Shown here one piece after another: positions 710-27,170 of a stretch of DNA of 64,000 bases. Location of the stretch: positions 28,054-92,053 of the forward strand of contig CAZOXJ010000001.1 of assembly GCA_964583325.1 (NCBI GenBank). The letters are read 5' to 3'. How positions within the stretch are numbered: the stretch's first letter is position 1; every line of letters begins with the position of its first letter. The translations under genes were made by a program, and so were the position numbers. This DNA comes from an uncultured Lentimicrobiaceae bacterium. Its GTDB lineage: Bacteria; Bacteroidota; Bacteroidia; Bacteroidales; UBA4417. The notes below the pieces were generated by a model that was given only the letters and a program-made list of their open reading frames with translations, was not told where the DNA came from and did no database searches.

Positions 710-1840
710 TCAGAAGGAATTCAGAACCTTTTTTAATACTTCTATCTGGTAATGAGGGTTGTATTTCTCATCAATCACTTTATATGTTGAAATTCTGACA
801 TTTTCTCTTCTTTGGTCATTTAAATGTATCCAGCAAGTTATTTTATCAGCCAAATCCCATGCATTATCCTCTTCAAAAAAATCTCCGTTCACACCCGGCT
901 CAATAACTTCAAATTCGGGCATTTGGGTTTCAAAATTATTATTGGTAATCACAGGAGTTCCGTATGTAAAACAATGCATTGCGGTTAAACCAACATTTCC
1001 CGGAGATATACAAACATCAGCATTATAAATAAGTTCGCTGGTTGTTTCTTCAATGTATGATGGCCCATATAGCCAAACATTCGATTCGAGACCTGAATCT
1101 AAAATCTTCCTGGTAAAACTTAAATTATCAGCATTATCGCCAATAATTGCAAGATTGCAATAGATTCCTTTTTGCTTAAGAATAATCATTGCCATTAAAA
1201 TAAGGTCGATCTTTTTAACTTTTTGTATCCGGCCGATATAAACCAACACTGGAAGCTCATTTTGAAAATGGTTTGAATAAATTGCTGTTTTGTGCAATCC
1301 TTGCCTTATGGGTAGCTGTTTATCATAATCCAATGAGTTATAAATGGGATACATTTTTTGGGGATTGAACCCTTTTTGAATCATAATCTTACACGAATAG
1401 TCGCCATACATAAGAAATATGTGCGACAGATGGTATAATGGATATATCCTCAATTTACTTCTCCAATGCAGTTCTTCCATTGATTTAAGACCATGCATCC
1501 AAATAAAAACTTTTTTATTTAATATCCTCGCAAATAGTGCAATAAACCAACTTGATAAGAAATTAGTATCACCGTCAATGATGAAGAATTTATATCTTTT
1601 AAAAATAAGGTGGGCTACCCCTTTTTGCCATTTATACTTTTTGTTTAAAATAAATATGTTCTTTACCGTTTTTTTATACCCGGAAAGCTCATCAACATTC
1701 ATTAATTTTATTGGAGTCCCAACCTGATCGCCAAAATAAAAATCGCAATTGAGCTCAGAATCCATTAGTTTATAGATAGCCGATCTGTAATGAGGCGCCA
1801 GATTGAAAACACAACATATTTTATTCTTTTCCTTAATCAT
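710..1840 (-). CDS. glycosyltransferase, GT-B fold (GT4-like)
   Basis: 376 aa. The C-terminal half has the GT4 pattern (VYIGRIQKVKKIDLIL, ISPGNVGLTAMHCFTYGTPVITNN, EVIEPGVNGDFFEE). It is the last gene of the glycan locus. Confidence 0.8.
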   Translation of the reverse strand: MIKEKNKICCVFNLAPHYRSAIYKLMDSELNCDFYFGDQVGTPIKLMNVDELSGYKKTVKNIFILNKKYKWQKGVAHLIFKRYKFFIIDGDTNFLSSWFIALFARILNKKVFIWMHGLKSMEELHWRSKLRIYPLYHLSHIFLMYGDYSCKIMIQKGFNPQKMYPIYNSLDYDKQLPIRQGLHKTAIYSNHFQNELPVLVYIGRIQKVKKIDLILMAMIILKQKGIYCNLAIIGDNADNLSFTRKILDSGLESNVWLYGPSYIEETTSELIYNADVCISPGNVGLTAMHCFTYGTPVITNNNFETQMPEFEVIEPGVNGDFFEEDNAWDLADKITCWIHLNDQRRENVRISTYKVIDEKYNPHYQIEVLKKVLNSF

Positions 1841-1854
1841 TTGTCAAATTTCCT

Positions 1855-3210
1855 TTACAACAGAGATTCATCAATTTTCTGAATCAGGAATTTACGTTTC
1901 CCTCTTTGGGTTAACGGGATATCATCAACATACTGAAGTTCAGGCTTTACTCCTATGGATTCAAATAAACTCACTATCTCCTTTTCATGAAAATCGGAAA
2001 ATCCAATATCCTTTACTATTCTTATTTCAATAAAACCGGGAATGTCCTGCTCTATTTGCCAGCGTATTATTCTTTCGAAAGATTTAAGATGGCCACCAAA
2101 TACTAATCCTATGAGATAGACTTTCTTATTGTCCGAATTATAGATAAAATCAACTGTACGGCCCTGAAGCGACTTTAGTTTAACTACCCCGTTAATTGTA
2201 CCGCCATAAATGGCTGTATCACCTGTTCTATAGCGAATAAACGGCATAACTTTATTTGAGTAGCCGGTTACAACAATTTCGCCAGATTCGCCTTCTTTCA
2301 CATGATTGCCATTCTCATCCAGTATTTCGGTAAATCCATAAAGCGGAGAGCAGATATATTCAAGACTATTGGCGAGTGTAAACGCAAAAACAGATACTTC
2401 GGAATGCCCATATTGCCCATAAATGGGACAGTTAAATGCCTTTCTCAATATTTCTGCGTTAGAATTATCAAAGTATTCACTTGTCAAATAAATTCCCTTT
2501 ACTACAAATTGAAGTTTGACATTATTAGCTATAAGATACTTTGCGATTTTTTCAAGTCCTGATGGATATCCTCTTATAAGGGATGGTTTAATTTCATTCA
2601 AGTGTTCTATATAACGACTTAAATTTGTATCAGTCATGTATAAAGTTGAATAGTGAACTGAACCATAAGGAAAATTTTCAGAACCCGTATTCCATAAAGT
2701 ATCTGTATTTCTTAGCCCGTCAGAAACCCGTGATCCATCAACTGCAACTATAACATCTTTGGAATTGCCTCCCATAAGGATATATAAACATTTTTGATGA
2801 ACAAATTCGAAATTAGTTGTTACAGGAAATTTTAGCGGCTCACCCGTTGATCCCCCTGTATTCATCCAGTATCCGAAAACACGGTCAAAATCACCCGAAT
2901 ACATTGCTTGCCCTTGTGTCCGAATAATCTCTTTGGTTAACAACGGTAATTCCTTTAGATTGGAAAACACCATCTTTTTATCCGGATGGATATCCGTCAT
3001 TACTTCCCGGTAATAGGGAACATTTTCTTTTGCATATGAAATAATATTGAACAGTAATTTGGAAACATGATCTTCAAAATTATTAACTTCAATATTGATA
3101 AGCGAATCAGCTAATTTACGTGCCTCTGTTTTGATCCTATAATTAACAAATGCTTTTTCAAGCAGGTTTCTGGTGTTATTAAATGAAAGTTTGATCACTG
3201 TTAAAAGCAA
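1855..3210 (-). CDS. CapK / PaaK / F390-synthetase-like adenylate-forming ligase
   Basis: 451 aa with adenylation motifs NTGGSTGEPLKF and IRYRTGD. The TTG start (3208-3210) directly abuts the stop of the upstream gene (3211-3213); GTG at 3196-3198 is an alternative start. Confidence 0.75.
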   Translation of the reverse strand: MLLTVIKLSFNNTRNLLEKAFVNYRIKTEARKLADSLINIEVNNFEDHVSKLLFNIISYAKENVPYYREVMTDIHPDKKMVFSNLKELPLLTKEIIRTQGQAMYSGDFDRVFGYWMNTGGSTGEPLKFPVTTNFEFVHQKCLYILMGGNSKDVIVAVDGSRVSDGLRNTDTLWNTGSENFPYGSVHYSTLYMTDTNLSRYIEHLNEIKPSLIRGYPSGLEKIAKYLIANNVKLQFVVKGIYLTSEYFDNSNAEILRKAFNCPIYGQYGHSEVSVFAFTLANSLEYICSPLYGFTEILDENGNHVKEGESGEIVVTGYSNKVMPFIRYRTGDTAIYGGTINGVVKLKSLQGRTVDFIYNSDNKKVYLIGLVFGGHLKSFERIIRWQIEQDIPGFIEIRIVKDIGFSDFHEKEIVSLFESIGVKPELQYVDDIPLTQRGKRKFLIQKIDESLL

Positions 3211-4245
3211 TTATACTGTGAAAGCATTAATTTTCTGACTCAAGCGTTTTCCCCTGTTCAGTAAACCATGCTTTTGAGCGTAAAAAAGTGAAGAAGGCGT
3301 ATAGTTTAACCGGTTGTATTCAGCATACTGTTTAACATTTCCGGTTTGAGCCATAAATCTGTTCAATTTAACCAGGCCGGTTTCAGGAAAATGTGTTGGA
3401 TTAATATCGTTGTAAGTCGTAAATGCAAACCGAAAACCGAGTGCACTGGCTATGTTTAGTACATTTTCGTTAAAATTACCATTTGGGAAAGCCGTTGTAT
3501 CAGGTTTAAAGCCTAAGATGTGTTCTAAATTATTGTTACAGTCAATAAACTCTTTTTCAATTTCTTCACTGGTATAATTTGTCAGAATGGCATGATTATG
3601 AGTATGATTTCCTATTGAAACCATGGGATTTGTTGCCATTTCTTTTAGTTCATGCGGGGTTAAGGGACGATCAATTTCAGACCATGGAACAGTTGAATCC
3701 AATCCAAAATGCTTATGAATGTAGGAATCTATATAATCGGATTTGTAACTTTTCAGGGCAGACTGTTCTTTACTGATCATCTCTTTGCTAACCCCTTGTC
3801 TGGTACGGTATTTATATATAATATCCCACCAATAAGATTTATTCTCTGTCACATTTCTGGTGGTAATAAAAAATGAGGCTGGAACCTTGTATTTATCCAG
3901 AATGGGCAGAGCAAGGGAATTATTAAAGTAACCATCATCAAACGTAAGCATTATCAATGGTTTATCGTTACTATCAGTTTGATTTATGTCACTAGTGCCG
4001 ACAAAACGATAATTGCTCTCGAGGAAATACTCTATAAAATCTTGAAACTGGGATAATGTCAGATTATTTTGCGGATCAGAATGATCAAGTTTTTTTTGAG
4101 ATTCCGATTCATACAATCCATGGAAGTAATAGATAAGCAGCTGCTGACTTTCATTCTTATATTTTAAGAATAAAGGGTGAACCATTGGTCCAACTTTTGT
4201 AATCATATTTATAATATTACGATCCAAAAAGCTACTTAAAGACAT
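3211..4245 (-). CDS. polysaccharide deacetylase (NodB homology domain)
   Basis: 344 aa with NodB motifs MLTFDDGYFNN (TFDD) and GNHTHNH (H-x-x-x-H). Confidence 0.8.
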   Translation of the reverse strand: MSLSSFLDRNIINMITKVGPMVHPLFLKYKNESQQLLIYYFHGLYESESQKKLDHSDPQNNLTLSQFQDFIEYFLESNYRFVGTSDINQTDSNDKPLIMLTFDDGYFNNSLALPILDKYKVPASFFITTRNVTENKSYWWDIIYKYRTRQGVSKEMISKEQSALKSYKSDYIDSYIHKHFGLDSTVPWSEIDRPLTPHELKEMATNPMVSIGNHTHNHAILTNYTSEEIEKEFIDCNNNLEHILGFKPDTTAFPNGNFNENVLNIASALGFRFAFTTYNDINPTHFPETGLVKLNRFMAQTGNVKQYAEYNRLNYTPSSLFYAQKHGLLNRGKRLSQKINAFTV

Positions 4246-4379
4246 TATGTTTTTGTTTACGGTTTATATTAACTAATAGGCCTAAGCCGGACTTTTTGTG
4301 ATTAATCTGTTTTGATTAATTCACTTGATGTAATTCCTTTACAAAAAAAAATAACAATATAAAACTATAAATCAATTTG

Positions 4380-5105
4380 TTATCCTTGGTTTGAGCTACT
4401 AAATTTCTCTTTAATAACATAGAAAAGAAATTTAGGATTTCCAACCAGATATCTATGCCACATCCTTCGAGGCTCTTTAATTAATCGAAAAAACCATTCC
4501 AACCCTAAGTCAATAAAACTTTGTGGTGCACGTTTAACACGCATTGAATAAAAATCAAAGACAGCTCCAATGCAGCAAACATGGCCTACCTCAAGCTTCT
4601 CAAAATGCTCGTATGCCCATTTTTCCTGTTTTGGAGCAGTCATACCTATGAATAGGACATCAGGTTTACATTTATTTATTTCATCAATCATTTCTTTATT
4701 TTCTTCTTCCGAAAAAGCAGGTTTGAAATTTGGGGAAAAAGCAAATACATTAACGTTTGGGTATTCATATTTTGCTCTTTCTTTTATAATTTGCAAACTG
4801 GCATCATCACTACCTAAAAAAAAGCATTTCCCTCCCTGGCGGTTTAGTTTATTCATTTCATAAAAGAACAAATCAGCACCCGCTATTTTCTTCAAGGATT
4901 TTCCTTTAATTAATTTTGCAGCAAATACAATCCCGACTCCGTCAGGAAGCAAAATATCAGAGTTTAAAATTGCTTCAGAAAACAAAGAATCACCCTGAGC
5001 AGTATTATACGAATGAGCATTAATTGTATTGATCAACAACTTAACATCAGGAATTTCTTCTAATGATTTGTCAAATAATATCAGGCTGGAAATTGAAAAA
5101 CTCAT
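4380..5105 (-). CDS. WecB/TagA/CpsF family glycosyltransferase (GT26)
   Basis: 241 aa with family motifs LLPDGVGIV, FFLGS and IGMTAPKQEKW. Confidence 0.85.
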   Translation of the reverse strand: MSFSISSLILFDKSLEEIPDVKLLINTINAHSYNTAQGDSLFSEAILNSDILLPDGVGIVFAAKLIKGKSLKKIAGADLFFYEMNKLNRQGGKCFFLGSDDASLQIIKERAKYEYPNVNVFAFSPNFKPAFSEEENKEMIDEINKCKPDVLFIGMTAPKQEKWAYEHFEKLEVGHVCCIGAVFDFYSMRVKRAPQSFIDLGLEWFFRLIKEPRRMWHRYLVGNPKFLFYVIKEKFSSSNQG

Positions 5106-5276
5106 TACGCTAAAAGATATTTATATGGCACTTTAATTCAGGGCATTATTCGTGTAAATCATTAAAAGGTTCTATTTTACAATGAACCTGATTCAATATA
5201 TTTAAACGTTAAAGACTAATTTTATTCTTATTAAAAGAATCAACACCGGGCTTAAGCTGAAAAGATGAATTATGCT

Positions 5277-6458
5277 TCAATCTTTCAGTTCCCAATTTAA
5301 TAACATGTCAGCTTTTAATTTATCAACCGAATAAGCTAAAACATTTTCATTATTAACCGGCTTCAACATTCCTGAAGCACTAATCATGCCTTTTGTAAAT
5401 TGGTCAATGTCGTGCTCATCAATAACACATCCATTTATTCCATCGCGAACTATTTCTTTTGCTGCACTGAAATTTGTAACACAAGCAGGTGTCCCACAGG
5501 CAATGGCTTCAATTAGTGCTGTTGACCATCCCTCTTTATATGACCCCATAATAAACAGGTCGGCAGCATTTAAATAATTTGCAACACCGTATTGATTTTG
5601 TTTGCCTGCAAGGATTACTTTACCTTCTAATCCCAATTTCTTAATATATTCAATTATGTTCTCTTTGTCTTCGCCTTCTCCAATAAAATAAAATACACTA
5701 CCAGGTTTTAGATTTTCATACTTGTAAAAACAATCGATCATAAATTTCCACCCCTTTAACCAGCCTAACCGCCCAGAGGTTACAACAATTGAAGTTGCCG
5801 GAGTGAGGTTCAATGTGCGTCGGGCAACATCTTTATCAATTGGTTTATATACTGCAGTGTTAATTCTTGATGGGAACTGAACAACTTCCTTCCGGTTGAT
5901 AATTCCTTTACTTCTTGTGATCATTCCTTGTATAGCAGTTTCATCGCCGGAAGCTAAAATCTGATCAGCATTTTTTAAATGTCGGAAAAAAACTTTTTCG
6001 AAAGTTTCAGCTATAAATTTCGCATACCAATATTTCGAAATGGAAAGTGGGTTTTCAAGGCCGGCAAAACAGTAACAAACACTGTTATACCCATAATCTT
6101 TTATTCCTATCAGAATTTCTGGTCGTTGTATAAAGATATTACTGACAGGCAATTCCAATATTTGTTTTCGGTAATACTTTGTATAATAATAACTGGCCAG
6201 GCGGTCAGGAATCAGATGTTTCGTAATTGATTTTGAATAAAATGCATATGCAAAAAAATCATAAACTATTCCATTGATTGACTTTTTAAACCAACTTCCT
6301 ATGGGATCTTCCCTATCTGTTGTTATTCCAACTAATGCTAAGCTATCTCCAAAAGAGATCATCATATTCTGTGCAAATGTCAGGTAGCCACCTATAGGGT
6401 AATCCTCGTAGTTGCAATAGTCAATTATTATTATTCGCTTTGATTTATCCATTTGCAA
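5277..6458 (-). CDS. glycosyltransferase family 4
   Basis: 393 aa with FYFIGEGEDKENI and GSYKEGWSTALIEAIACGTPACVTN...IVRDGINGCVI (EX7E-type C-terminal region). Confidence 0.85.
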   Translation of the reverse strand: MQMDKSKRIIIIDYCNYEDYPIGGYLTFAQNMMISFGDSLALVGITTDREDPIGSWFKKSINGIVYDFFAYAFYSKSITKHLIPDRLASYYYTKYYRKQILELPVSNIFIQRPEILIGIKDYGYNSVCYCFAGLENPLSISKYWYAKFIAETFEKVFFRHLKNADQILASGDETAIQGMITRSKGIINRKEVVQFPSRINTAVYKPIDKDVARRTLNLTPATSIVVTSGRLGWLKGWKFMIDCFYKYENLKPGSVFYFIGEGEDKENIIEYIKKLGLEGKVILAGKQNQYGVANYLNAADLFIMGSYKEGWSTALIEAIACGTPACVTNFSAAKEIVRDGINGCVIDEHDIDQFTKGMISASGMLKPVNNENVLAYSVDKLKADMLLNWELKD

Positions 6459-6540
6459 ATTGTAAATATCGTATTACAAGTTCAACTTATGAAAATGCAC
6501 CAATTCTTATTATTAATTCAAAAACATTTTCCGTACTTCA

Positions 6541-7632: not shown

Positions 7633-7774
7633 TATTTACCTGGTTAAGTTTAAAATCCTGAAACTTTTACAAAAGGAAATATTTGCTGTAGCCAAAACTT
7701 CATCCTATTATACTCTGACATGTTCCTGATAGATTTATACCATTAATTAATAGCGTTACGCGAATTAACATGTT

Positions 7775-7808
7775 GTTATGTTGTAAAAACTAGTTTTTAC
7801 AACATAAC
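7775..7808. repeat. perfect 34-bp palindrome GTTATGTTGTAAAAACT|AGTTTTTACAACATAAC
   Basis: All 17 pairs (7775/7808 ... 7791/7792) checked base by base. It is flanked by a second inverted pair, TTACGCG (7756-7762) / CGCGTAA (7818-7824). It lies in the only large gap (263 bp) in the middle of the glycan locus. No U-run follows on either strand. Confidence 0.9.
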
Positions 7809-7895
7809 CGACCTATGCGCGTAATTTCTCTGATTTAATAATTTTGATTGTTAAAAGTAATTTCAAAAATTAGTTTCACAGATAACAAAACACGC

Positions 7896-8930
7896 TCAAC
7901 TCATGGAATTAATAAAATCCTCAATAATAAAACGTTGAGGATCAACATTATCAGCGTGAAAATATAGGCTTTTATCCCAGTATCCCGGGCAATTATCGTA
8001 AACTGCTCCCATTGAGAATCCATAACTCATTTCGACCAGTAGCGGACTACCTGATTTATCATAAACAAAATCCAGTGCAAGTGATTGTGACTTGATTTTG
8101 TCAGCAACATCAAATGCTATTTGAATACTTTTTAAATTAAACAGGTTTGGGTCATATTTAATTATTCCGCTACCAGAAGCCCTAAAATCATTTACCCGGT
8201 TATATCTTCTCAGGGCTATTGCTCTGTTACCTATTATAACAATTCTATCATCAAAACTATTTTCAGGAATAAAATCCTGAAAATAAGCATATCCTTTCTG
8301 CCGTGGAAGTAAACCTATTTTTTCTTTAGCAACAAACAATCTATATAATCCTCTGATTAGATGCAATATAGCTTTTGGGCTTTGATCGCGGCGCAATTCC
8401 CAAACACGTTGTTTAAAATCGGAATACTGGCTAATCATCGGGAATCCGGTTCCAAATGCCCGATTCAATAATTTAATTGCCCTATACCTGTTTTTAACAA
8501 GTTGTACATTGGATGCACCAGCGCCACCCCGTAATTTAAAAACTTTAGGGAAAGTTGTTTGATCGATCCAAACTCTGGCGTCTTCCTTACTATAAAACAC
8601 ATAAGAGTTAACAAGTGGAGCCTGAATGGTTTCGAACAAATATTTTTGACCTACCTTGTCATCAAAGTGGAAACAGGTATTAAAATCAGGAAAAATTCTG
8701 ATTCCTTTTTTTTCTAACGAAAAAATGAGTTGCCGTGCAAAATTCTGGGCTCGGTAATCTTCGTGAGTCCAATGCCACATAAGGCCATCACAACCTATTA
8801 ATTGCTGAATGATATTTGACTCATAACAATTTACCAATTTGTATGAAACATTATGTTTATCGCAATATGCTATCCATCTGTCACTAAAACTACCAGGCCT
8901 GTTATGAATGGCTATCATCATATTAATCAC
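7896..8930 (-). CDS. ATP-grasp ligase, RimK-like
   Basis: 344 aa with the ordered ATP-grasp blocks FPKVFKLRGGAGASNVQLV, YFQDFIPENSFDDRIVIIGNRAI, RRYNRVNDFRASGSGII and LALDFVYDKSGSPLLVEMSYG. The start lies 2 nt after the upstream CapA-like stop. Confidence 0.65.
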   Translation of the reverse strand: MINMMIAIHNRPGSFSDRWIAYCDKHNVSYKLVNCYESNIIQQLIGCDGLMWHWTHEDYRAQNFARQLIFSLEKKGIRIFPDFNTCFHFDDKVGQKYLFETIQAPLVNSYVFYSKEDARVWIDQTTFPKVFKLRGGAGASNVQLVKNRYRAIKLLNRAFGTGFPMISQYSDFKQRVWELRRDQSPKAILHLIRGLYRLFVAKEKIGLLPRQKGYAYFQDFIPENSFDDRIVIIGNRAIALRRYNRVNDFRASGSGIIKYDPNLFNLKSIQIAFDVADKIKSQSLALDFVYDKSGSPLLVEMSYGFSMGAVYDNCPGYWDKSLYFHADNVDPQRFIIEDFINSMS

Positions 8931-8932
8931 TT

Positions 8933-10057
8933 TTATTTTTTTGCTATTGCATCAATCGAAACATCCAGATGCGATTCACAACGGATAACATTTAAAATAT
9001 GATTGTAATGTTTATCTCCCCGAAAAATCCTTGAGAGCCCAAGTTTCGATAGTAATCTTTGTAATTTATGACTTCGCAGAAGATTGACAGGACTGAAGAT
9101 GTCCAGATAATATTCGCGTCGTGAAGCAACAAATTCATCCCATTTACTTTTCAATAAATGCTCATCAACAATAACTGCGGAGAATTCTTCAATTGATTTA
9201 AATATTTGTTGCTTTTCTGTGTCACCCGAAAAGGATAACCCGAAATCCTTTTTGCTTTGCTTAATTGGATGAATTGAGAAACTTAATTCTTTGCTATCTG
9301 AAATTGAAAGTTGTAGAATTAAGCCCGTGTACCAGTCTTTATACTCTGAATCAAGTGTAAACAGGAAATTACCCAAACTATAGAAAATCGGAACATTATT
9401 AAATATTTCATATCCCGAAATACAATGGGTATGATGACCAATAACAACATCAGCACCATTTTCTGCAAAAAAGCGGTATTGTTTAACCATCCGGGGACTA
9501 GGATAATTGTAATATTCATGCCCTCCATGAACTATAACAATTACAAAATCAACCTGTGGCCGAATTTCTTTTATTTTGCTGTAAACCGCTATTAAATCAA
9601 GAGGATTTGCTCCAGGAATATCATTGGTTGCAATTGACCATTCGTTTTCACAAAAGTTTATAATGCCAATTTTAATGCCATTTTTCTCAAAAATTGCAGG
9701 TTGAGAGGCTTCTTCCAGATTTATGCCTGCGCCTGTGGTTAAAATGTTATTGTCCTTACATAAACTCAGCGTGCTGTTTAAACCACTGGTTCCATAATCC
9801 ATAATATGGTTATTTGCCAGTGCTACAGCATGTGTATTGATTTTTTTTAATAAGGTAAATATCCCCTCATTTGTCCTCAGATGCGGACCGGTTTTCTCGA
9901 TTTTAAGGCTGGCATCATCATCAATTACAGGGCATTCTAAATTTAAGATATTTAAATCGCCCTCTTCGAAAATTGAAACTATTTCCTCCGAAAAGAAATT
10001 ATTATTTAAGAATGGTTCTGTGACACAAAAATCACCACAAATATTTATTTTAATCAT
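8933..10057 (-). CDS. CapA / PGA_cap family metallophosphoesterase-like protein
   Basis: 374 aa with family motifs NICGDF, LNLECP, ALANNHIMDYG, VIVHGGHEY, IGHHTHC and YSLGNF. Confidence 0.8.
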   Translation of the reverse strand: MIKINICGDFCVTEPFLNNNFFSEEIVSIFEEGDLNILNLECPVIDDDASLKIEKTGPHLRTNEGIFTLLKKINTHAVALANNHIMDYGTSGLNSTLSLCKDNNILTTGAGINLEEASQPAIFEKNGIKIGIINFCENEWSIATNDIPGANPLDLIAVYSKIKEIRPQVDFVIVIVHGGHEYYNYPSPRMVKQYRFFAENGADVVIGHHTHCISGYEIFNNVPIFYSLGNFLFTLDSEYKDWYTGLILQLSISDSKELSFSIHPIKQSKKDFGLSFSGDTEKQQIFKSIEEFSAVIVDEHLLKSKWDEFVASRREYYLDIFSPVNLLRSHKLQRLLSKLGLSRIFRGDKHYNHILNVIRCESHLDVSIDAIAKK

Positions 10058-10059
10058 AT

Positions 10060-11241: not shown

Positions 11242-11302
11242 TCAGTTTGTTTATCGCTGTGATCAGGAACAGATGTTTCCCGGTTTTATTTAGCTAAACG
11301 AC

Positions 11303-12625: not shown

Positions 12626-12699
12626 AAAAAATGATTGCCTTTATTGCTTTTAGATTATCTGACTTTTCGAATACAAATGATGATTATGCAGCGAAAAGT

Positions 12700-14040: not shown

Positions 14041-14120
14041 TTCGTTTATTGTATGTATTTTTTCTCAGTAAAGAATTAAAGAAATAATAGATTCGTCAAT
14101 TCGCCGGTTTGTGTTTATAA

Positions 14121-15401: not shown

Positions 15402-15410
15402 AGATATTTG

Positions 15411-16820: not shown

Positions 16821-16838
16821 ATCAAAATAGTCAAAATA

Positions 16839-18032: not shown

Positions 18033-18089
18033 AGGTCAGAGTTTATATTGAAAGAATTAACCGGCAGTTAAACTATTTGACAAATTATA

Positions 18090-19397
18090 TTAATCGGTTG
18101 TTCCTGTTTTATACCAGGGCAAAATCTTTGTCAGAGCACCGGGTCTGTTCGATTTACTTATTCTGTTCCAGAAAGGAGATATTCCATGATTAATTTCGAC
18201 CTCAAACGATAATAATGGATCAGAATTAATTATCCATTTCTTAAAATGATGGCTTATCTTAGGACTGATATAGTAAGTACCCTCATTAAAAAAATCTTCA
18301 GGCAATTCACATATAATGGAGTTTAATCCAACTTTTAAGGTTGGCCAGTTTTCTGGGGATCCATCATTATGGTATGTTCTTAAAATGGTCATTCCACTCT
18401 CAGTTAATACATCGAAACCAATAACTAAATCATTATCGAGTTGATATACAATGAAATCTAATTGTACTCTTATTTTTAGTTTAGAAAAGAAATGACTCCT
18501 GATATTATCATCCTGGTCCATAATTTTTATAGCCATGAGTTTAATAGAGGAATCACCTAATGCGGTCTGTTCATCCCAATAAATTGACCCTTCTTTTAAA
18601 GTTTCATACATCAGGTATTTCCTAATCACATCAATAGGATTACTGTCATCAACTACGGTGCCTTTGTTAAGTAAAACAACCCGGGAACATAAATTTGTGA
18701 TTGCCTGCATATTATGACTTACAAATAATACTGTGCGCCCCTCCTTGTTACTAACATCCTGCATTCTTCCTATTGCCTTTTTCTGAAATTCGGCGTCACC
18801 TACGGCAAGTACTTCATCAACAACCAAAATCTCTGGTTCGAGGTATGCAGCAATTGCAAATCCGAGTCTAACTGTCATTCCACTTGAATAACGCTTCACT
18901 GGTGTATCGAGATATTTTTCAACACCTGCAAAATCAACAATTTCATCAAGCTTACGGGTAATTTCAGCTTTTGTCATACCCATAATTGAACCATTCATGT
19001 ATATGTTTTCGCGGCCTGTCATTTCAGGATGAAAACCGGTACCAACCTCCAGCAGCGAAGCAATTCGCCCGTGAGCAACAATCCTACCGGTAGTTGGGGT
19101 AGTTACCCTTGACAGAATCTTAAGCAATGTAGATTTGCCTGCACCATTTTTACCTATTATACCTAAAACTTCTCCTTTTTTTACATCAAAGCTGATATCA
19201 TTAAGAGCCCACACATAATCACTTGTAGATTTACTTTCTCTGTCATTAACCTGGCCAACTTTCAGATAAGGATCTGCTTTACCCCGAATATTCATTGCCC
19301 ACCAACGATTCAGGTCATGACTGATTGTTCCTGTACCAATTGTGCCAAGCCTGTATTGCTTTGAAATATCCTCGAATTTAATTGCTATATCATCCAT
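18090..19397 (-). CDS. wzt: polysaccharide ABC exporter ATP-binding protein with C-terminal extension (Wzt/TagH type)
   Basis: 435 aa with Walker A GKNGAGKST, signature YSSGMTVRLGF and Walker B ILVVDE. An extra ~185-aa domain follows the NBD. Confidence 0.9.
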   Translation of the reverse strand: MDDIAIKFEDISKQYRLGTIGTGTISHDLNRWWAMNIRGKADPYLKVGQVNDRESKSTSDYVWALNDISFDVKKGEVLGIIGKNGAGKSTLLKILSRVTTPTTGRIVAHGRIASLLEVGTGFHPEMTGRENIYMNGSIMGMTKAEITRKLDEIVDFAGVEKYLDTPVKRYSSGMTVRLGFAIAAYLEPEILVVDEVLAVGDAEFQKKAIGRMQDVSNKEGRTVLFVSHNMQAITNLCSRVVLLNKGTVVDDSNPIDVIRKYLMYETLKEGSIYWDEQTALGDSSIKLMAIKIMDQDDNIRSHFFSKLKIRVQLDFIVYQLDNDLVIGFDVLTESGMTILRTYHNDGSPENWPTLKVGLNSIICELPEDFFNEGTYYISPKISHHFKKWIINSDPLLSFEVEINHGISPFWNRISKSNRPGALTKILPWYKTGTTD

Positions 19398-19478
19398 ACT
19401 TGTCCTTATATTGAATTCCAGTTTGTTGTATTCTCATTTCTGGAGATATAAACACCAAACTGTTAAAATTATTTTACA

Positions 19479-20339
19479 CTAAACCACATCCATAAATGAT
19501 CTTTCAACTTTATTGAAAATCCATGTTCCGATCAGTAATAAAATAATTGTAAATGTGAAGCTGTATCCTAAAGAGAGCCAGGAGAATGAACCTTTACCCA
19601 GAAATCCGTATTTAAATGTCTCTAAGACAGCGGTAAGCGGATTGGCCTGGATGAACCACATATACTTTTTGTAATTTCCTTCCATTACTGAAAGAGGGTA
19701 AATAACCGGTGTAAAATACATCCAGAGTTGGATAGCAAAAGCAACCAGGAATTTTAAATCCCTGTACTTTGTTGTCATTGATGATATAATAATGCCAAAT
19801 CCCAGTCCCAGTCCTGCTAATATAAAGATAAGCACAGGGAAAAGTAAAGCATAACTATTAATTGCTATTTCAGTACCTTTTGAGATAAAATAAATATACA
19901 CACCTGCAAATAAGATAAACTGAATCAGCATTTTCAGCAATCCAGACATCGTAACTGATATAGGTACAATTAAGCGGGGAAAGTAAACTTTACCAAATAC
20001 AGACTGATTGGTATAAAATGTATCAGATGTTTTAATTAAAGAGTCGGAAAAATAATTCCACAGGCAAATCCCGGATAAGTAAAACAACGGTTGAGGTATT
20101 CCGTCGGTTGGTATACCGGCTAAACCACCAAAAACAAACATAAAAACTATGGTGGTGAAAACCGGTTGTATAAAAAACCATAGCGGGCCCAATATTGTTT
20201 GCTTATAAAAAGTAACAATATCGCGCTTTATGTACATTTCGAGCAAGTCTCTATACTTCCATACTTCTTTCAGATTCAGATTAAATAAACTACCTTTAGG
20301 TTTGATTACTATATCCCAGTCTTCATTTGTTTTAGCCAT
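19479..20339 (-). CDS. wzm: ABC-2 type polysaccharide exporter permease (Wzm/TagG type)
   Basis: 286 aa with about six hydrophobic segments. It sits directly upstream of the ATPase gene. Confidence 0.85.
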   Translation of the reverse strand: MAKTNEDWDIVIKPKGSLFNLNLKEVWKYRDLLEMYIKRDIVTFYKQTILGPLWFFIQPVFTTIVFMFVFGGLAGIPTDGIPQPLFYLSGICLWNYFSDSLIKTSDTFYTNQSVFGKVYFPRLIVPISVTMSGLLKMLIQFILFAGVYIYFISKGTEIAINSYALLFPVLIFILAGLGLGFGIIISSMTTKYRDLKFLVAFAIQLWMYFTPVIYPLSVMEGNYKKYMWFIQANPLTAVLETFKYGFLGKGSFSWLSLGYSFTFTIILLLIGTWIFNKVERSFMDVV

Positions 20340-20355
20340 TTCGAGAATTCGATTA

Positions 20356-20373
20356 ATAAAGTACGTACTTTAT
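20356..20373. repeat. perfect 18-bp palindrome ATAAAGTAC|GTACTTTAT
   Basis: All 9 pairs checked. It lies 17-34 nt upstream of the wzm start codon (20337-20339). Confidence 0.85.
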
Positions 20374-20483
20374 ATGATGTTTGTATTGGAAAAAATTCAA
20401 TGCTAAAATGGTTTTCATTCACCAGATCAACTGCTTTGCAGCATTATGAATTTTAAAATTGTTACTCCTGTTTTTTTTTGAAT

Positions 20484-20518
20484 CGAGATGTTGAAAGAAA
20501 TATTTCTTTCATATCTCG
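20484..20518. repeat. extended hairpin: perfect 20-bp palindrome TGAAAGAAAT|ATTTCTTTCA (20492-20511) plus outer CGAGAT/ATCTCG arms
   Basis: Checked base by base. It contains the stop codon (20509-20511) of the epimerase gene. The outer 6-bp arms are at 20484-20489 and 20513-20518, with a 2-nt/1-nt internal bulge. Confidence 0.85.
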
Positions 20519-21648
20519 TTAATTCCATTCCACGGATTACTTAGTTTGCAATTTCCCATAATTAATTTAACAACCCGCCATGAAGTATCATCAATCTGGT
20601 AGTCATTTGGGATACTGAATGTTTGCCTTTCTTTGCGTTCGTTTATAACAAGGGATACCGAATTTATTATTATTGCAGGATCAAAACCTGTAAGAATAAT
20701 CGAACCAGTATCCTGTGCTTCAGGACGTTCCATTGATTGGCGTAATGAAATTGCAGGAAAGCCTAAAATTGATGATTCTTCACTAATAGTACCGCTGTCT
20801 GATATGGTGCATAATGCGTTTTGTTGCAGATACACATAATCAAAAAACCCGAATGGCTTTAAAAACATAATTTTATTATCGAGGCTTCTTTCGCCAAGTT
20901 GTTCAATTCGTTTTCTGGTTCGTGGGTGTGTACTAACAATAATTGGCAAATTGTAGTTTTTAGCAAGTTCGTTGAGCACAATCAATATTTTGTCGAGGTT
21001 AGGAGCATTATCTACGTTTTCTTCCCTGTGGGTTGAAACAACAAAATATTTTCCTTTTGTTAATTGCAAAGAATTCAAAATTTCTGAATTATCAATATTG
21101 GCTTTATAAAAGCTCAACACCTCACGCATTGGAGAACCTGTTAGGTAAATCCTTCGATGCGGCAATCCCTCGCTTAAAAGATGGCGTCGGGCATGTTCAG
21201 TATAAACCAGATTAAAATCAGCTATGTGATCAATAACCCTGCGGTTTGTTTCTTCAGGTACGTTGAAATCAAAACTCCTGTTTCCTGCTTCCATATGAAA
21301 TACAGGAATATGCAAGCGTTTTGCCATATATGCCGACAAGCATGAATTTGTATCGCCGAGCACCAATAGTCCATCTGGATTTTCATCTCTGAGTACTTTT
21401 TCGATCTTGCGCAATATGTCACCCACAGCTGAACCTAAGGATGTTGTATCAATTTCAAGAAAATGATCGGGCCTTCTTAATTGGAGCTCTTTCCAAAATA
21501 CTTCGTTCAATTCATAATCATAATTCTGACCTGTATGAACTATTATCTGATCAACATACTTATCAAGCAGTGCCATGGTCCTGGATAATCTTATAATCTC
21601 AGGCCTGGTGCCAACTACGGTAATAATTTTTAATTTTTTTTGAGTCAT
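20509..21648 (-). CDS. fnlC: UDP-N-acetylglucosamine 2-epimerase (non-hydrolysing), FnlC/CapG/WbjD type
   Basis: 379 aa with KIITVVGTRPEIIRLS, HTGQNYD, VVSTHREENVD and STHPRT. It is the third gene of a CapE/F/G-like trio. Confidence 0.85.
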   Translation of the reverse strand: MTQKKLKIITVVGTRPEIIRLSRTMALLDKYVDQIIVHTGQNYDYELNEVFWKELQLRRPDHFLEIDTTSLGSAVGDILRKIEKVLRDENPDGLLVLGDTNSCLSAYMAKRLHIPVFHMEAGNRSFDFNVPEETNRRVIDHIADFNLVYTEHARRHLLSEGLPHRRIYLTGSPMREVLSFYKANIDNSEILNSLQLTKGKYFVVSTHREENVDNAPNLDKILIVLNELAKNYNLPIIVSTHPRTRKRIEQLGERSLDNKIMFLKPFGFFDYVYLQQNALCTISDSGTISEESSILGFPAISLRQSMERPEAQDTGSIILTGFDPAIIINSVSLVINERKERQTFSIPNDYQIDDTSWRVVKLIMGNCKLSNPWNGINEI

Positions 21649-21741
21649 ATAATTTTCAAGGACTTGATTACTAAAGTAATGTTTGAGGTTTTCAGAATAT
21701 ATTCAAGACATTTACCAATGAAATATCAAAATAGTAACGAT

Positions 21742-22863
21742 TTACAATCTCACCTTTTCGAAATAAGTATCCGGATCAGTTGGATCAAAAAATTCGTTTA
21801 TCCAGAAGAGTGTCAACAAATCGGTAGTTCCAACGTTTTTAATATTATGTGTGTACCAAACTGGCATATCAACAAAAGAAGGTTTATCGCCATCAAGTTC
21901 AAAATGTAATACTTCATCAGTTCCGATTCTCCGAAGTTCAATTTCAGCTTTTCCTTGAATTACAGCAAATCGTTCAATTTTTCGTGTATGAAAATGCTCA
22001 CCACGGGTTATTCCGGGATGAGTTGTTGAGAACGAAAATTGACCGCCAATCGAGGTTTTAACTGTTTCCACAAAGCTTCCACGATTATCGGTATGCTTAG
22101 TGAGTGAAACAGCGTAATGGTCTAAATTGTTAATGTATGATCTGAATGTATTAAAGATATTTAATTCGAATTTGCTTTTTATTTCGGGTACTATTGAATT
22201 TTCGAAATAGTTTTTTTTGTACCCTTCAAGCAATGATAAAACTTCTGATACCTTTATTTCTGCTGTGTAGGGCACAATAAATTCAGGTTCAGCTTTTTGA
22301 TTAATGATAATATTCCATATTACATCAATCAACTCGCTAACATAAATAAGCCTCATGTTGCTGTCAACATCAATTTTAGGTTGCTCATTATGCGTAAGCT
22401 GGTGAGAAAATGTAGCAATGACAGAATTGTAATATGGATTACCAAAAGGGCCGAAAACATTAGGAATAACCAAGCCTGTAAACAGTGCGTTATGCTTTTT
22501 AGCCCAAGTAGCAAACAATACGCGACCTTCTTTTTTTGAAAGTCCATATTTATTATCACGTTCTTCCTGGGTAGATGATGAAAAAATTATATGGGGAGTT
22601 ACTCCCTCATTTTCCATTGCATTAATCAGTTTTTGTACTAATAAAATATTCGTTTGGTACAATACATCAGGATCGTTATGACGGTTCATCGCAGCAAGGT
22701 GAACAATCACATCACATTGATGCACAAAACTTTGCAATTGTTGCTGATCCTGAAAATAAGTATCTTCAAAATATACACGCTCAACATTTTCTTTTAAGCC
22801 AATTGTATTGTAAAGATGTGTGCCTACAAACCCAGCCTGACCGGTTATGCCTATTTTTAACAT
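21742..22863 (-). CDS. fnlB: SDR-plus-cupin reductase/epimerase, FnlB/CapF/WbjC type
   Basis: 373 aa with an N-terminal Rossmann motif (GITGQAGFVGTHL) and a C-terminal cupin-like region (RGEHFHTRKIERFAVIQGKAEIELR). Confidence 0.8.
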   Translation of the reverse strand: MLKIGITGQAGFVGTHLYNTIGLKENVERVYFEDTYFQDQQQLQSFVHQCDVIVHLAAMNRHNDPDVLYQTNILLVQKLINAMENEGVTPHIIFSSSTQEERDNKYGLSKKEGRVLFATWAKKHNALFTGLVIPNVFGPFGNPYYNSVIATFSHQLTHNEQPKIDVDSNMRLIYVSELIDVIWNIIINQKAEPEFIVPYTAEIKVSEVLSLLEGYKKNYFENSIVPEIKSKFELNIFNTFRSYINNLDHYAVSLTKHTDNRGSFVETVKTSIGGQFSFSTTHPGITRGEHFHTRKIERFAVIQGKAEIELRRIGTDEVLHFELDGDKPSFVDMPVWYTHNIKNVGTTDLLTLFWINEFFDPTDPDTYFEKVRL

Positions 22864-22913
22864 TATTTTCTAAAAGTAAAACTGATTCCTGATTTTTTTC
22901 AAATTTTATTTAC

Positions 22914-23921
22914 TTATAATCCCAGATCTTTTTTGATAATATCCAGTTTAAGTAAAAGATTTTTAGTTCCTTCAACATCAAGGCGTTCTGTATTGTCTGA
23001 ATGATATTCTTCTATCTGTGATACATCCTCCCCTTCCGAAAAATAAAGTTCATAATTCAGGTCACGGTTATCAGCCGGGATGCGATAAAAATCACCCATA
23101 TCCTCAGCTTTAAGCATATCTTCTCTATTAACAAGGACTTCATATTTCTTTTCGCCATGCCGTGTCCCGATTATTTTAATTTGGCTATCCGACTTATAAA
23201 GTTCTTTAAGTGCCTCTGCTAAAGTTAGTATTGTAGCTGCCGGAGCTTTCTGAACAAAAATATCACCTGCTTTACCATTGGCAAACGCGAAAAGTACAAG
23301 TTCAACGGCATCTTCCAATGTCATCATAAACCGGGTCATACTAGGATCCGTGATCGTTAATGGCTCACCTCGTTTTATCTGGTCAATGAACAAAGGAATA
23401 ACTGAACCTCTCGAAGCCATTACATTTCCATAACGGGTTCCGCAAAATACTGGACCGTTACCATTCAAACTGCGGCTTTTCGCTACCATAACTTTTTCGC
23501 TCAAAGCTTTTGACATACCCATGGCATTTATGGGATAAACAGCTTTATCAGTGCTTAAAACAATAACATTTTTAACACCATGTTCCAATGCGCTATCTAA
23601 AACATTTTCACAGCCCAGAACATTCGTTCTGACTGCCTCCATTGGGAAAAACTCACAAGATGGGACTTGTTTTAATGCAGCTGCCTGAAAAACATAATCA
23701 ACGCCGTACATGGCAGAATCAATACTCCTCTTATCCCTGGTATCGCCGATATAATATTTAATTTTATCATTTCGATAAAATTGACGCATATCATCTTGTT
23801 TCTTCTCGTCGCGGCTAAATATCCTTATTTCTTTAATATCAGAGTTTAAAAACCGTTTTAGTACAGCATTACCAAAAGATCCGGTTCCTCCGGTAATTAA
23901 TAATATTTTGTTTTCGAGCAT
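22914..23921 (-). CDS. fnlA: UDP-GlcNAc 4,6-dehydratase/5-epimerase, FnlA/CapE/WbjB type
   Basis: 335 aa with LITGGTGSFGN, STDKAV and NAMGMSKAL (Met in place of the SDR Tyr, a CapE/FnlA hallmark). Confidence 0.88.
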   Translation of the reverse strand: MLENKILLITGGTGSFGNAVLKRFLNSDIKEIRIFSRDEKKQDDMRQFYRNDKIKYYIGDTRDKRSIDSAMYGVDYVFQAAALKQVPSCEFFPMEAVRTNVLGCENVLDSALEHGVKNVIVLSTDKAVYPINAMGMSKALSEKVMVAKSRSLNGNGPVFCGTRYGNVMASRGSVIPLFIDQIKRGEPLTITDPSMTRFMMTLEDAVELVLFAFANGKAGDIFVQKAPAATILTLAEALKELYKSDSQIKIIGTRHGEKKYEVLVNREDMLKAEDMGDFYRIPADNRDLNYELYFSEGEDVSQIEEYHSDNTERLDVEGTKNLLLKLDIIKKDLGL

Positions 23922-23974
23922 GATTTGAAGTTTTAGAGAATCTTTAGTACAGTATAAGTTCCTGAATCTGAGTA

Positions 23975-26338: not shown

Positions 26339-26357
26339 AGTCTATTCTTTTAAAGAA

Positions 26358-27170
26358 TTAGTTTATATAAGAATATAATAAAAGGGTAAAGGTAAGTGTG
26401 GATAAAATAAGAGCAAAAGGGAACTCCGGAGTTCCCCATACGCGCTTTTCAAGTGGTTTAACGTAAATAATATCATTAGGCCTGATGTAATAATATTCAG
26501 ATTCAAGTATTTCTGGTTTTGTTAAATCTAACGAAACAAGTATATTTTTCCCATTTTCATTTCTGGTTAAAATAACGTCTTTCCTGTTACTATATTTTAC
26601 CATATCTCCAGCCAAACCTAATGCATCAAAAATTGTAAGTTTTTCCTGCGAATAGGTAAAATGGCCGGGTATCCTAACCTCACCCAGGACTGAAACAAAA
26701 CGATTAACAAGCTTAATGGTAACAATAGGTTGGCTTAATATATGGCTTAAGGAGTCAGTGAGTATAAGATTTACCTCTGATAGCGTTTTATCTTTCGCGT
26801 AAATATCTCCAACTAATGGCAGCGAAAGATATCCTTCCTTATTAATTACATATGAGGTTAATGATGCGCTGTAAGGGGATAAATTGTCAGCATAGGCACT
26901 TTGCCTTCCGGTAGCAGTTGAAAAAACATTTGTCAAAGGATCATCCAGACTATTGACTCTAACATAAAGTTCATCGTTAGGTTTTAAACGATAATCAAGA
27001 AATTCCGATTCTTTAAATGATTTCGGTGTCCGATTATTTTTTTGAAGATATTCAATATCACGTTTAGTAACGCATCCTGAAAACAGGAATAAAAGTAAAC
27101 CTAACAATAAGGCATAACTTTTTAGGGGTATCGATTGCATCTTAATTAATTTAATTGAATTTAATTCCAT
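26358..27170 (-). CDS. wza: polysaccharide export outer-membrane lipoprotein (Wza/OPX type)
   Basis: 270 aa with a lipobox (LLFLFSGC), the Poly_export motif YRLKPNDELYVRV and an SLBB-like region. The true start is probably the ATG at 27140 (MQSIPLKSY...). Confidence 0.85.
   Translation of the reverse strand: MELNSIKLIKMQSIPLKSYALLLGLLLFLFSGCVTKRDIEYLQKNNRTPKSFKESEFLDYRLKPNDELYVRVNSLDDPLTNVFSTATGRQSAYADNLSPYSASLTSYVINKEGYLSLPLVGDIYAKDKTLSEVNLILTDSLSHILSQPIVTIKLVNRFVSVLGEVRIPGHFTYSQEKLTIFDALGLAGDMVKYSNRKDVILTRNENGKNILVSLDLTKPEILESEYYYIRPNDIIYVKPLEKRVWGTPEFPFALILSTLTFTLLLYSYIN

Follow-up and report, generated by a model that had tools for sequence, protein, structure and literature searches.

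Which route takes a surface glycan out of the cell when its gene cluster carries components of two? In the textbook schemes, Wzc-type tyrosine-kinase co-polymerases are tied to Wzy, and Wzm/Wzt transporters are tied to WaaL or to KpsE/D-like partners. The locus studied here carries both wza-wzc and wzm-wzt on one strand. It occupies positions 710-27170 of a 64,000-nucleotide stretch of an uncultured Lentimicrobiaceae bacterium (Bacteroidota; GenBank assembly GCA_964583325.1, contig CAZOXJ010000001.1, positions 28,054 to 92,053), and this whole stretch is referred to below as the window. A first-pass annotation, made from the sequence of the window, had read the combination as either two fused glycan pathways or an undescribed hybrid route. 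We propose a modular locus in which Wzm/Wzt would export a polymer built in the cytoplasm, after which a WaaL-like enzyme would ligate it and/or Wzc/Wza would export it. We regard this proposal as evenly balanced between right and wrong.

A single-strand locus with an export head and an ABC transporter

The open reading frame (ORF) list gives exactly 21 minus-strand ORFs in 710-27170, all consecutive and co-directional and separated by gaps of 0-263 bp, as the first-pass annotation had described. The widest gaps are 7633-7895, 5106-5276 and 20340-20508, and the GC content is about 0.33-0.36 over the locus. Families were assigned with Pfam and NCBIfam scans of the window ORFs, which covered the 64-kb window apart from a few short ORFs (104-131 aa), ORFs nested in longer ones and the ORF at the right edge. 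From 5' to 3', the locus encodes wza, wzc, a FnlA/FnlB/2-epimerase trio, the ATP-binding cassette (ABC) transporter pair wzm and wzt, a 397-aa protein (u397), a 469-aa protein (m469) and four glycosyltransferase family 4 (GT4)-type transferases. These are followed by a CapA-like protein, an ATP-grasp-like protein, two GT4 enzymes, a WecG/TagA enzyme, a deacetylase, an adenylate-forming ligase and a last GT4 enzyme (Table 1). The scans bore out the annotated wza and wzc, FnlA/B/C-type trio, wzm and wzt and two tailoring pairs (CapA-like with ATP-grasp-like, deacetylase with adenylate-forming ligase), and transmembrane (TM) prediction agrees that Wzm and one further protein, m469, are the only polytopic members. 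The earlier picture of about ten GT-B transferases interleaved with the tailoring pairs was right about the interleaving. The count is nine, comprising seven GT4-type enzymes, u397 (GT-B) and the WecG/TagA enzyme, which is not GT-B, and all nine have no predicted TM segment.

Wza has the lipobox LFSGC, a single SLBB domain and a hydrophobic C-terminal segment at residues 251-270. By these sequence features it matches the Bacteroidetes class of short outer membrane polysaccharide export (OPX) proteins, which carry an alpha-helix at the C terminus and are proposed to act alone in a Wza-like manner, without a beta-barrel partner (Schwabe et al. 2022, PMC9601211). The likeness to the surveyed proteins extends to its length of 270 aa, its Poly_export and one SLBB domain, its hydrophobic C-terminal helix and the lack of an adjoining beta-barrel gene; the difference is that a pairing with Wzm/Wzt cassettes in Bacteroidetes is absent from that survey (PMC9601211). 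Wzc scores 162 bits against TIGR01007 (cut-off 108) and 35 bits against the BexC/CtrB/KpsE model (cut-off 437). It has two TM segments and carries the motifs Walker A GEGKS and Walker B IIIDTPP and a YGYGYGY tail. Because the kinase domain is present, this polysaccharide co-polymerase (PCP) is of the PCP-2a and not the PCP-3 type. The scanned window ORFs gave no LMWPc or PHP match that would mark a Wzb or PHP phosphatase.

wza-wzc directly upstream of wzm-wzt recurs in Bacteroidota

A scan with Wzt across one genome per GTDB species recovered 80 loci, nearly all from Bacteroidota, and 63 of these have at least 6 kb of upstream sequence. wza and wzc lie upstream on the same strand in 13 of the 63 (wzc in 14). 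The loci with both genes belong to Flavobacteriaceae (Algibacter, Seonamhaeicola, Dokdonia, Pustulibacterium, Mesonia and Flavobacterium), Prevotellaceae and other Bacteroidales metagenome-assembled genomes (MAGs). In L043, L058, L064 and L075, 24-44 bp separate wzc from wzm; in L063 the two ORFs run into each other. In about ten wza-wzc-wzm-wzt loci, wzt is followed by some 10 kb that encode soluble proteins only, with nothing resembling the membrane proteins Wzx or Wzy; in Seonamhaeicola (L064), for example, three methyltransferases and six glycosyltransferases follow. In the remaining loci the assignable polytopic ORFs are MBOAT, PMT_2 and Acyl_transf_3 proteins, not Wzx, and three others have no Pfam match. 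All Wzc proteins adjoining wzm/wzt have a tyrosine-rich tail, and the searched Walker B pattern is present in most.

Because wzm-wzt follows immediately on wza-wzc in many Bacteroidota, the comparison rules out an accidental fusion. The juxtaposition described in the first-pass annotation is real, and its choice between two fused pathways and a hybrid route is settled in part. The component families are all known, and the combination of ABC transporter, PCP and OPX follows the logic of group 2 capsules. A recent review assigns PCP-2 proteins to Wzy-dependent capsules and PCP-3 proteins to ABC-dependent ones (PMC12220298). The literature searched held no description of wza-wzc-wzm-wzt loci in Bacteroidota and none of a PCP-2a working with a Wzm/Wzt transporter, and subscription literature may differ on both counts. 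No characterised homologous locus of the same composition, which the annotation had named as evidence against its reading, was found in the searchable literature.

A Bacteroidales MAG, 'Candidatus Minthosoma equi' (L047), has two wzt copies (4236-5513 and 11588-12865) behind one wza-wzc, an arrangement that suggests two tandem ABC-type cassettes behind a single export head.

Cassettes of either assembly type behind the same head

A metagenome scan with Wzc turned up closely related loci that occupy the same position in the chromosome; their shared flanks (serA-like, IVP, DUF1015, hybrid histidine kinase and yggS) are 58-96% identical and their Wzc is 73-98% identical. In L090-L094 and L101, wza-wzc is followed by fnlABC-wzm-wzt-u397-m469. 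L095 has equally similar flanks (Wzc 73%), and there wza-wzc is followed by two FdtA proteins, acyltransferases, an ATP-grasp protein, a DegT aminotransferase, a Wzx (Polysacc_synt/Polysacc_synt_3), a GT2 enzyme and a 7-TM protein; this is a classical Wzx/Wzy cassette. The order in L098 (Wzc 65%) is wza-wzc-Wzx, and in L097 a different wzm follows wza-wzc. Orthologous wza-wzc thus heads an ABC-type or a Wzx-type cassette at one site: the head is conserved and is followed by an exchangeable cassette that belongs to one assembly type or the other.

A u397 homologue lies directly upstream of an m469 homologue, sometimes overlapping it, in L083-L085, L089-L092 and L104, and one GT4 gene separates the two homologues in L102. 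Homologues of u397/m469 accompany a wzt with a Wzt_C-type extension, except in the most distant relative (28% identity), and wzm precedes that wzt wherever the contig extends; L103 ends just upstream of wzt. wza-wzc is found upstream of the u397/m469 cassette in the window, L083, L084, L085, L104 and L090-L092. FnlABC, a deacetylase and a CapA-like with a RimK-like protein recur as accessory genes in wzm-wzt-u397-m469 cassettes.

Wzm, Wzt, u397 and m469

Wzm is 45-96% identical to the products of wzm genes adjoining wzt in related loci, and the top NCBIfam matches for the Wzm/Wzt pair are of the TagH and Wzt/RfbE types. The Wzt_C match on Wzt is weak (E 2e-4, residues 279-401, 21.8 bits against a gathering score of 30.4), and the Wzt orthologues in L089, L102 and L103 have recorded PF14524 matches.

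The first-pass annotation had listed u397 as unknown. It has no Pfam match even at E<=10 and no NCBIfam match. Its homologues number 281; the 120 listed are all at least 49% identical, and a few of those listed carry PF00534. At E<=1e-30 there are 62 matches among 1.84 billion cluster representatives, a distribution that points to a small and distinct family. An AlphaFold2 (AF2) model built from a 45-sequence alignment has a predicted local distance difference test (pLDDT) score of 93, and Foldseek matches it to GT4-type GT-B enzymes in the PDB (7mi0, BshA, WaaG and PimA, E about 1e-9 to 1e-10). Because of this structural match, u397 is now assigned as a predicted divergent GT-B glycosyltransferase.

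m469 likewise has no Pfam match, including Wzy_C, at E<=10 and none in NCBIfam, so that its earlier label of Wzy_C-family membrane protein lacks a match of its own; membership of the wider superfamily is backed by its homologues and its fold. The 120 homologues are 26-82% identical, nearly all full-length ones are about 430-480 aa, and about one third carry PF04932 (Wzy_C). The predicted structure (pLDDT 89.5) has WaaL (7TPG) as its best PDB match (E 6e-4, TM-score 0.50/0.57), followed by RodA and FtsW. On this model m469 is predicted to belong to the WaaL/Wzy superfamily, as a ligase or a polymerase, and the conservation pattern together with the best structural match favours a ligase. m469 is thus plausibly a WaaL-type enzyme, the textbook partner of Wzm/Wzt, encoded within the locus. 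The family is 40-80% identical between cassettes with quite different sugar and transferase sets. Family profiles of u397 and m469 had no match among PDB sequences, and an hhalign comparison of the m469 family with E. coli K-12 WaaL gave no meaningful match (probability 0.2).

The alignment of the m469 family has invariant residues R205, R308, R327, G346, G348, D367, R376, G378 and G381. By eye, its GYG...D-x8-R-x-G-x2-G stretch sits at the position of the conserved histidine motif of Wzy_C/WaaL, and this may be the reason why the Pfam model fails.

The missing flippase and initiating transferase

The first-pass annotation had seen neither a Wzx-type flippase nor a WbaP- or WecA-type initiating transferase. 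In agreement, no Polysacc_synt, MatE, Bac_transf or Glycos_transf_4 match was found in any scanned ORF of the 64-kb window, and the identical Wzx search does detect Wzx in the sister loci L095 and L098. The annotation had treated these absences as a puzzle, which by analogy with known systems they probably are not. In the ABC-transporter route the whole chain is built in the cytoplasm, and neither Wzx nor Wzy is needed. WecG/TagA-family enzymes use undecaprenyl diphosphate (Und-PP)-GlcNAc, and the E. coli WecA-type initiator is encoded outside the O-antigen locus. The WecG/TagA transferase of the locus therefore leads us to expect a WecA/TagO-type initiator encoded elsewhere.

An automated Wzx search may go astray in this locus. 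PF14667 ('Polysacc_synt_C'), usually a Wzx marker, matches the C-terminal part of the FnlB-like reductase (E 2e-50), so that a search with PF14667 would call a false flippase at 21742-22863.

Transcription signals

No canonical -7 box had been noted in the internal gaps, and a minus-strand search for TAnnTTTG confirmed that none occurs in any intergenic gap of 710-27170. Terminator-like hairpins with a T-run were likewise not detected in any gap of the locus, and an Rfam scan of the window gave no match. The palindrome in the 263-bp gap (Table 1) would form a 15-bp hairpin as RNA, with no T-run after the stem, and the whole gap folds at z = -2.4 relative to shuffles. It could be a candidate operator, processing site or atypical terminator that splits the locus. 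The AT-rich stretch upstream of wza (27171-28105) matches nothing in Rfam and lacks a canonical Bacteroidota -7 box on the minus (coding) strand, and its 935 bp are unusually long for a promoter or leader.

A bipartite promoter of the Bacteroidota type, TTTG-N20-TAGGTTTG, is present on the minus strand at 28792-28823, 20 nt upstream of a yggS-like gene. The bipartite motif is thus in use in this genome, and it is the more notable that neither the region upstream of wza nor the gaps of the locus contain it. Matches to TTTG-N17-23-TAnnTTTG within the locus are all intragenic, one of them encoding the conserved GHRQ motif of u397, and were rejected as promoters. A sigma-70-type promoter scan, which is not relevant to Bacteroidota, gave no excess over the shuffled expectation and was set aside.

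Fate of the exported polymer

We hold with high confidence that the locus would make an ABC-transporter-dependent glycan on an Und-PP primer, with the initiator encoded elsewhere, Wzx unneeded and a WaaL-fold enzyme available in the periplasm. Gene order leaves us about equally inclined for and against the further step that Wzc/Wza carry the ABC-exported polymer to the surface.

Assembly would begin with a WecA/TagO-type enzyme, encoded elsewhere, making Und-PP-GlcNAc, to which the WecG/TagA-family transferase would add the second sugar. The gene content suggests that eight further soluble transferases would complete the polymer on the cytoplasmic face, with an L-FucNAc-type sugar supplied by the FnlABC-like trio. 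The deacetylase and adenylate-forming ligase would tailor the product by re-acylation of an amino sugar, and the CapA-like and ATP-grasp proteins by amino-acid or amide decoration. By family membership, Wzm/Wzt, with its Wzt_C-like domain, would move the finished Und-PP-linked chain across the inner membrane, making Wzx/Wzy unnecessary. The next step is the uncertain one: in the periplasm, the chain may be joined to lipid A-core or a different acceptor by m469, or be carried to the surface as capsule or exopolysaccharide by Wzc-Wza, or both, with Wzc/Wza acting in the second case as KpsE/KpsD do for KpsMT. u397 would most likely make a conserved end structure, either a reducing-end adaptor or a non-reducing-end cap, to be read by the ligase or by the C-terminal domain of Wzt.

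Coupling of Wzc/Wza to the ABC-exported chain is favoured by the return of the pairing in several families, by wzc-wzm gaps that are very short, by the loci in which Wzc/Wza are the sole local fate and by the cassette swap, as well as by the tyrosine-rich tails of the Wzc proteins and the lack of a terminator or -7 box in the internal gaps of the window. A model with two fates is favoured because Capnocytophaga canimorsus sends the same glycan units to lipooligosaccharide (LOS) via WaaL and to the capsule via Wza (PMC5156936).

Several points weigh against coupling. Adjacency and co-orientation do not establish Wzc/Wza as receivers of the ABC-exported chain, and a WaaL-like enzyme in the cassette provides a complete textbook fate (lipopolysaccharide (LPS) via Lpt) in which an OPX protein is unneeded. 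Wzc is absent within 6-10 kb upstream in 49 of the 63 Wzt loci. The cassettes of L089 and L102 lack an upstream wza-wzc, and wzm comes first there after divergently oriented type IX secretion system (T9SS) cargo genes. In two distant relatives, wzc and the cassette are set apart by a NusG/UpxY-like antiterminator gene (at 2674-3201 in L084 and 3580-4107 in L104), and the cassette may be under its own control there as a separate operon. Within the window, a gap of 169 bp precedes wzm and another, of 263 bp, bears the palindrome. Wzc similarity tracks lineage and not cassette type, with no sign of ABC-route specialisation, and a Bacteroidota wza-wzc pair can serve distant genes, as in C. canimorsus (PMC5156936).

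The rival that fares best takes the two parts as mere neighbours: Wzm/Wzt, u397, m469 and the transferases would form a full ABC O-antigen pathway to LPS, and wza-wzc would export another, Wzx/Wzy-dependent capsule encoded elsewhere. It accounts for the WaaL-fold enzyme inside the cassette, the cassettes free of wza-wzc in L089 and L102, the many Wzt loci without wza-wzc nearby and the NusG/UpxY-like gene that parts wzc from the cassette, and the Klebsiella K-locus, which adjoins a wzm/wzt O-locus, offers a parallel. Zunongwangia profunda has been described with separate Wza/Wzc and ABC-transporter clusters (PMC4332637), and wza-wzz of C. canimorsus is unlinked from the glycan genes (PMC5156936). 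It sits less well with the several Flavobacteriaceae and Prevotellaceae loci in which wzc and wzm overlap or are 24-44 bp apart, because a Bacteroidota promoter (-33 and -7 boxes plus leader) would hardly fit into such gaps, which argues for co-transcription. The same orthologous head also precedes a Wzx-type cassette, a type readily taken to belong with wza-wzc, in L095 and L098 and so, by parsimony, would serve whichever cassette follows. Furthermore, in many wza-wzc-wzm-wzt loci (L043, L063, L064, L075 and others) the 10 kb downstream show neither a WaaL-like protein nor any other polytopic one, and among locally encoded fates of the ABC product this leaves Wzc/Wza alone. We consider mere proximity a genuine possibility that falls clearly short of even.

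A hybrid polymerisation is improbable. Here, the nine transferases would build one large Und-PP-linked oligosaccharide block, which Wzm/Wzt would flip, m469 would polymerise with Wzc as co-polymerase, and Wza would export. Nine single-copy transferases are indeed many for a classical ABC-type polymer, m469 falls in the Wzy_C superfamily, and the locus has Wzc, which the textbook pairs with Wzy, with its tyrosine tail intact. Wzy polymerases, however, usually diverge as the structures of their repeat units do, and the m469 family is conserved (40-80%) across dissimilar cassettes. The best structural match of m469 is WaaL, a Wzt_C-like domain such as that of Wzt typically marks transporters by which a finished polymer is recognised at its capped end, and most wza-wzc-wzm-wzt loci lack any Wzy_C-like protein. 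Finally, a chimeric assembly, in which a capsule locus and an O-antigen locus would have been brought together artificially, is conceivable for a metagenome-derived window but was rejected as vanishingly improbable: at least eight contigs that are independent and come from different samples (L001, L083, L090-L094 and L101; Wzc identity 76-100%) share the gene order, and the order is also found in isolate genomes from other genera.

Comparison with known systems

Among the closest known systems are ABC-dependent O-polysaccharide pathways. In E. coli O9a and Klebsiella O2a/O12, Wzt has a C-terminal carbohydrate-binding domain, WecA initiates the chain and WaaL ligates it. The likeness lies in Wzm with a Wzt bearing a Wzt_C-like extension, soluble transferases, the lack of Wzx/Wzy, an initiator expected elsewhere, an available WaaL-fold enzyme and, in the relatives L064 and L089, methyltransferases adjoining wzt. 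Unlike those systems, the locus is headed by an OPX protein and a PCP-2a with a bacterial tyrosine (BY)-kinase domain, its WaaL-like gene lies within the cassette beside a conserved private GT-B enzyme, and it has nine transferases and two tailoring pairs.

Were Wzc/Wza to receive the product of Wzm/Wzt, the locus would resemble group 2/3 capsule systems (KpsMT-KpsE-KpsD; E. coli, Neisseria and Campylobacter) in joining an ABC transporter with a PCP plus an OPX protein, so as to span the entire envelope. It differs in that the PCP is a PCP-2a with a tyrosine kinase and not a PCP-3, the OPX protein is a 270-aa single-SLBB protein and not KpsD, and WecG implies Und-PP and not a lyso-phosphatidylglycerol (lyso-PG)-Kdo anchor. 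No Capsule_synth (KpsC/KpsS), KpsF/KpsU or other Kps-specific match was found in the scanned window ORFs, and a Kps-type system was rejected for want of KpsC/S/E/D features. The locus resembles the Wzx/Wzy-dependent systems of group 1 capsules and colanic acid (Wza-Wzb-Wzc) in that its 5' end encodes an OPX of the Wza type and a PCP-2a of the Wzc type and a variable region comes next; the sister locus L095 is exactly of this type. The locus itself differs in lacking Wzx, a clear Wzy, a Wzb/PHP phosphatase and WbaP/WecA, and has an ABC transporter instead.

In Vibrio cholerae O31 NRT36S, a wzm transposon mutant loses its capsule and the region also carries wza-wzb-wzc (PMC1847822), an experimental hint that a capsule of the Wza/Wzc type can be supplied by an ABC transporter. 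The co-occurrence of wzm/wzt and wza-wzb-wzc in one region is the likeness; the differences are that this region also has wzx and wzy, that its mechanism was never resolved, that it belongs to another phylum and that it has no u397/m469 pair (PMC1847822). C. canimorsus, a member of Flavobacteriia, is a precedent for one glycan with two fates, WaaL ligation to lipid A-core and Wza/Wzc-like export, and differs in that assembly of its capsular polysaccharide (CPS) and LOS is Wzx/Wzy-dependent and its wza-wzz, waaL and glycan genes are unlinked (PMC5156936).

Features of the locus and its surroundings

The coordinates of the locus features are given in Table 1. The CapA-like and ATP-grasp-like genes are separated by 2 bp, and the ORF of the adenylate-forming ligase abuts that of the deacetylase with zero gap. 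About 150 bp past the last GT4 gene lies a same-strand gene that is NadE-like by eye, and the ORF at the right edge of the window, also read by eye, resembles a beta-propeller peptidase. T9SS cargo proteins with Por_Secre_tail domains are encoded in the window, a Bacteroidota-like trait, and the Wzt relatives are almost all from Bacteroidota. The exact sequence is present on metagenome contigs of the Joint Genome Institute (JGI).

On the minus strand at 59254-60792 and 61024-62517, adjacent proteins about 32 kb away from the locus match the membrane glycosyltransferase families PMT_2 and Glyco_transf_22 (ArnT/PMT-like), the latter weakly and below threshold. The pair could serve lipid A/core modification or protein glycosylation.

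Table 1. Features of the glycan locus and its upstream region, in transcription order (positions in the window).
Feature	Position	Strand	Evidence and remarks
AT-rich 935-bp stretch upstream of wza	27171..28105		GC about 0.30; no ORF of at least 50 aa; presumed promoter/leader
wza, short OPX lipoprotein, 270 aa	26358..27170	-	Poly_export PF02563 1.8e-14; SLBB_2 2.3e-6
wzc, PCP-2a co-polymerase with BY-kinase domain, 787 aa	23975..26338	-	Wzz + GNVR + AAA_31
FnlA/CapE-type UDP-GlcNAc 4,6-dehydratase/5-epimerase	22914..23921	-	TIGR04130 8.7e-166, 551 bits (equivalog cut-off 730); Polysacc_synt_2 1e-102
FnlB/CapF/WbcJ-type reductase	21742..22863	-	NF047837 1.4e-77 (below cut-off); Epimerase; PF14667 over C-terminal part
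FnlC/WecB-type non-hydrolysing UDP-GlcNAc 2-epimerase	20509..21648	-	Epimerase_2 2.4e-92; TIGR00236 245 bits (cut-off 210)
wzm, ABC-2 permease	19479..20339	-	PF01061 3.8e-16; 5 predicted TM
wzt, ABC ATPase with ~170-aa C-terminal extension resembling Wzt_C	18090..19397	-	ABC_tran 2.2e-23
u397, predicted divergent GT-B (GT4-like) glycosyltransferase, 397 aa	16839..18032	-	AF2 + Foldseek
m469, 10-TM protein, predicted WaaL/Wzy (Wzy_C) superfamily, 469 aa	15411..16820	-	homologues and predicted fold
GT4 glycosyltransferase, 426 aa	14121..15401	-	Glycos_transf_1 3e-22
GT4-like glycosyltransferase, 446 aa	12700..14040	-	weak: Glyco_transf_4 4.4e-6, just under gathering score
GT4-like glycosyltransferase, 440 aa	11303..12625	-	weak: Glyco_trans_1_4 and Glycos_transf_1 ~4e-5; WcaI family 3e-11
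GT4 glycosyltransferase, 393 aa	10060..11241	-	Glyco_trans_1_4 7e-21
CapA-like (PGA_cap, metallophosphatase-type) tailoring protein	8933..10057	-	PF09587 2.7e-56; family recurs in cassettes L103, L104
ATP-grasp-like ligase (RimK-like, weak)	7896..8930	-	R2K_2 4e-3; RimK family 1.3e-10, below cut-off
Perfect 34-bp palindrome, GTTATGTTGTAAAAACT/AGTTTTTACAACATAAC	7775..7808		within 263-bp gap 7633-7895
GT4 glycosyltransferase, 363 aa	6541..7632	-	Glycos_transf_1 1.6e-30; Glyco_transf_4 1.4e-10
GT4 glycosyltransferase, 393 aa	5277..6458	-	Glycos_transf_1 1.1e-29
WecG/TagA/CpsF-family (GT26) transferase	4380..5105	-	PF03808 3e-52; TIGR00696 127 bits (cut-off 69); TarA 2.7e-33
Polysaccharide de-N-acetylase	3211..4245	-	Polysacc_deac_1 9.5e-29; same family after m469 homologue in L084, L104
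Adenylate-forming (PaaK/F390-synthetase-like) ligase	1855..3210	-	AMP-binding 4.6e-7; DVU_1553-family AMP-dependent ligase 8e-29, below cut-off
GT4 glycosyltransferase, 376 aa, final gene of locus	710..1840	-	Glycos_transf_1 6.8e-18

Implications

The recurrent, often tightly spaced wza-wzc-wzm-wzt block and a head that accepts either cassette type challenge the textbook pairing, and the comparison defines a small uncharacterised four-gene cassette, wzm-wzt-GT-B-WaaL-like. The surprise may be a tyrosine-kinase co-polymerase that works without any Wzy. If the coupling is functional, the Wzc kinase cycle must regulate export and not polymerisation, serotype switching could exchange whole assembly routes, and capsule finders that take proteobacterial systems as their model would wrongly classify many loci of Bacteroidota, among them those of marine Flavobacteriaceae and of gut or rumen Prevotellaceae.

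More generally, the PCP-2a/short-OPX pair of Bacteroidota could be a route-agnostic exporter that takes Und-PP-linked polymers, delivered by Wzx/Wzy or by an O-antigen-type Wzm/Wzt transporter, from the periplasm to the surface, a generalisation that we rate slightly below an even call. If it holds, wza-wzc-wzm-wzt would represent a widespread scheme of ABC transporter, PCP-2a and OPX, undescribed in the literature searched, and the WaaL-like branch point of the present locus would split one glycan between LPS and capsule. Tyrosine-kinase co-polymerases would then function independently of any Wzy polymerase.

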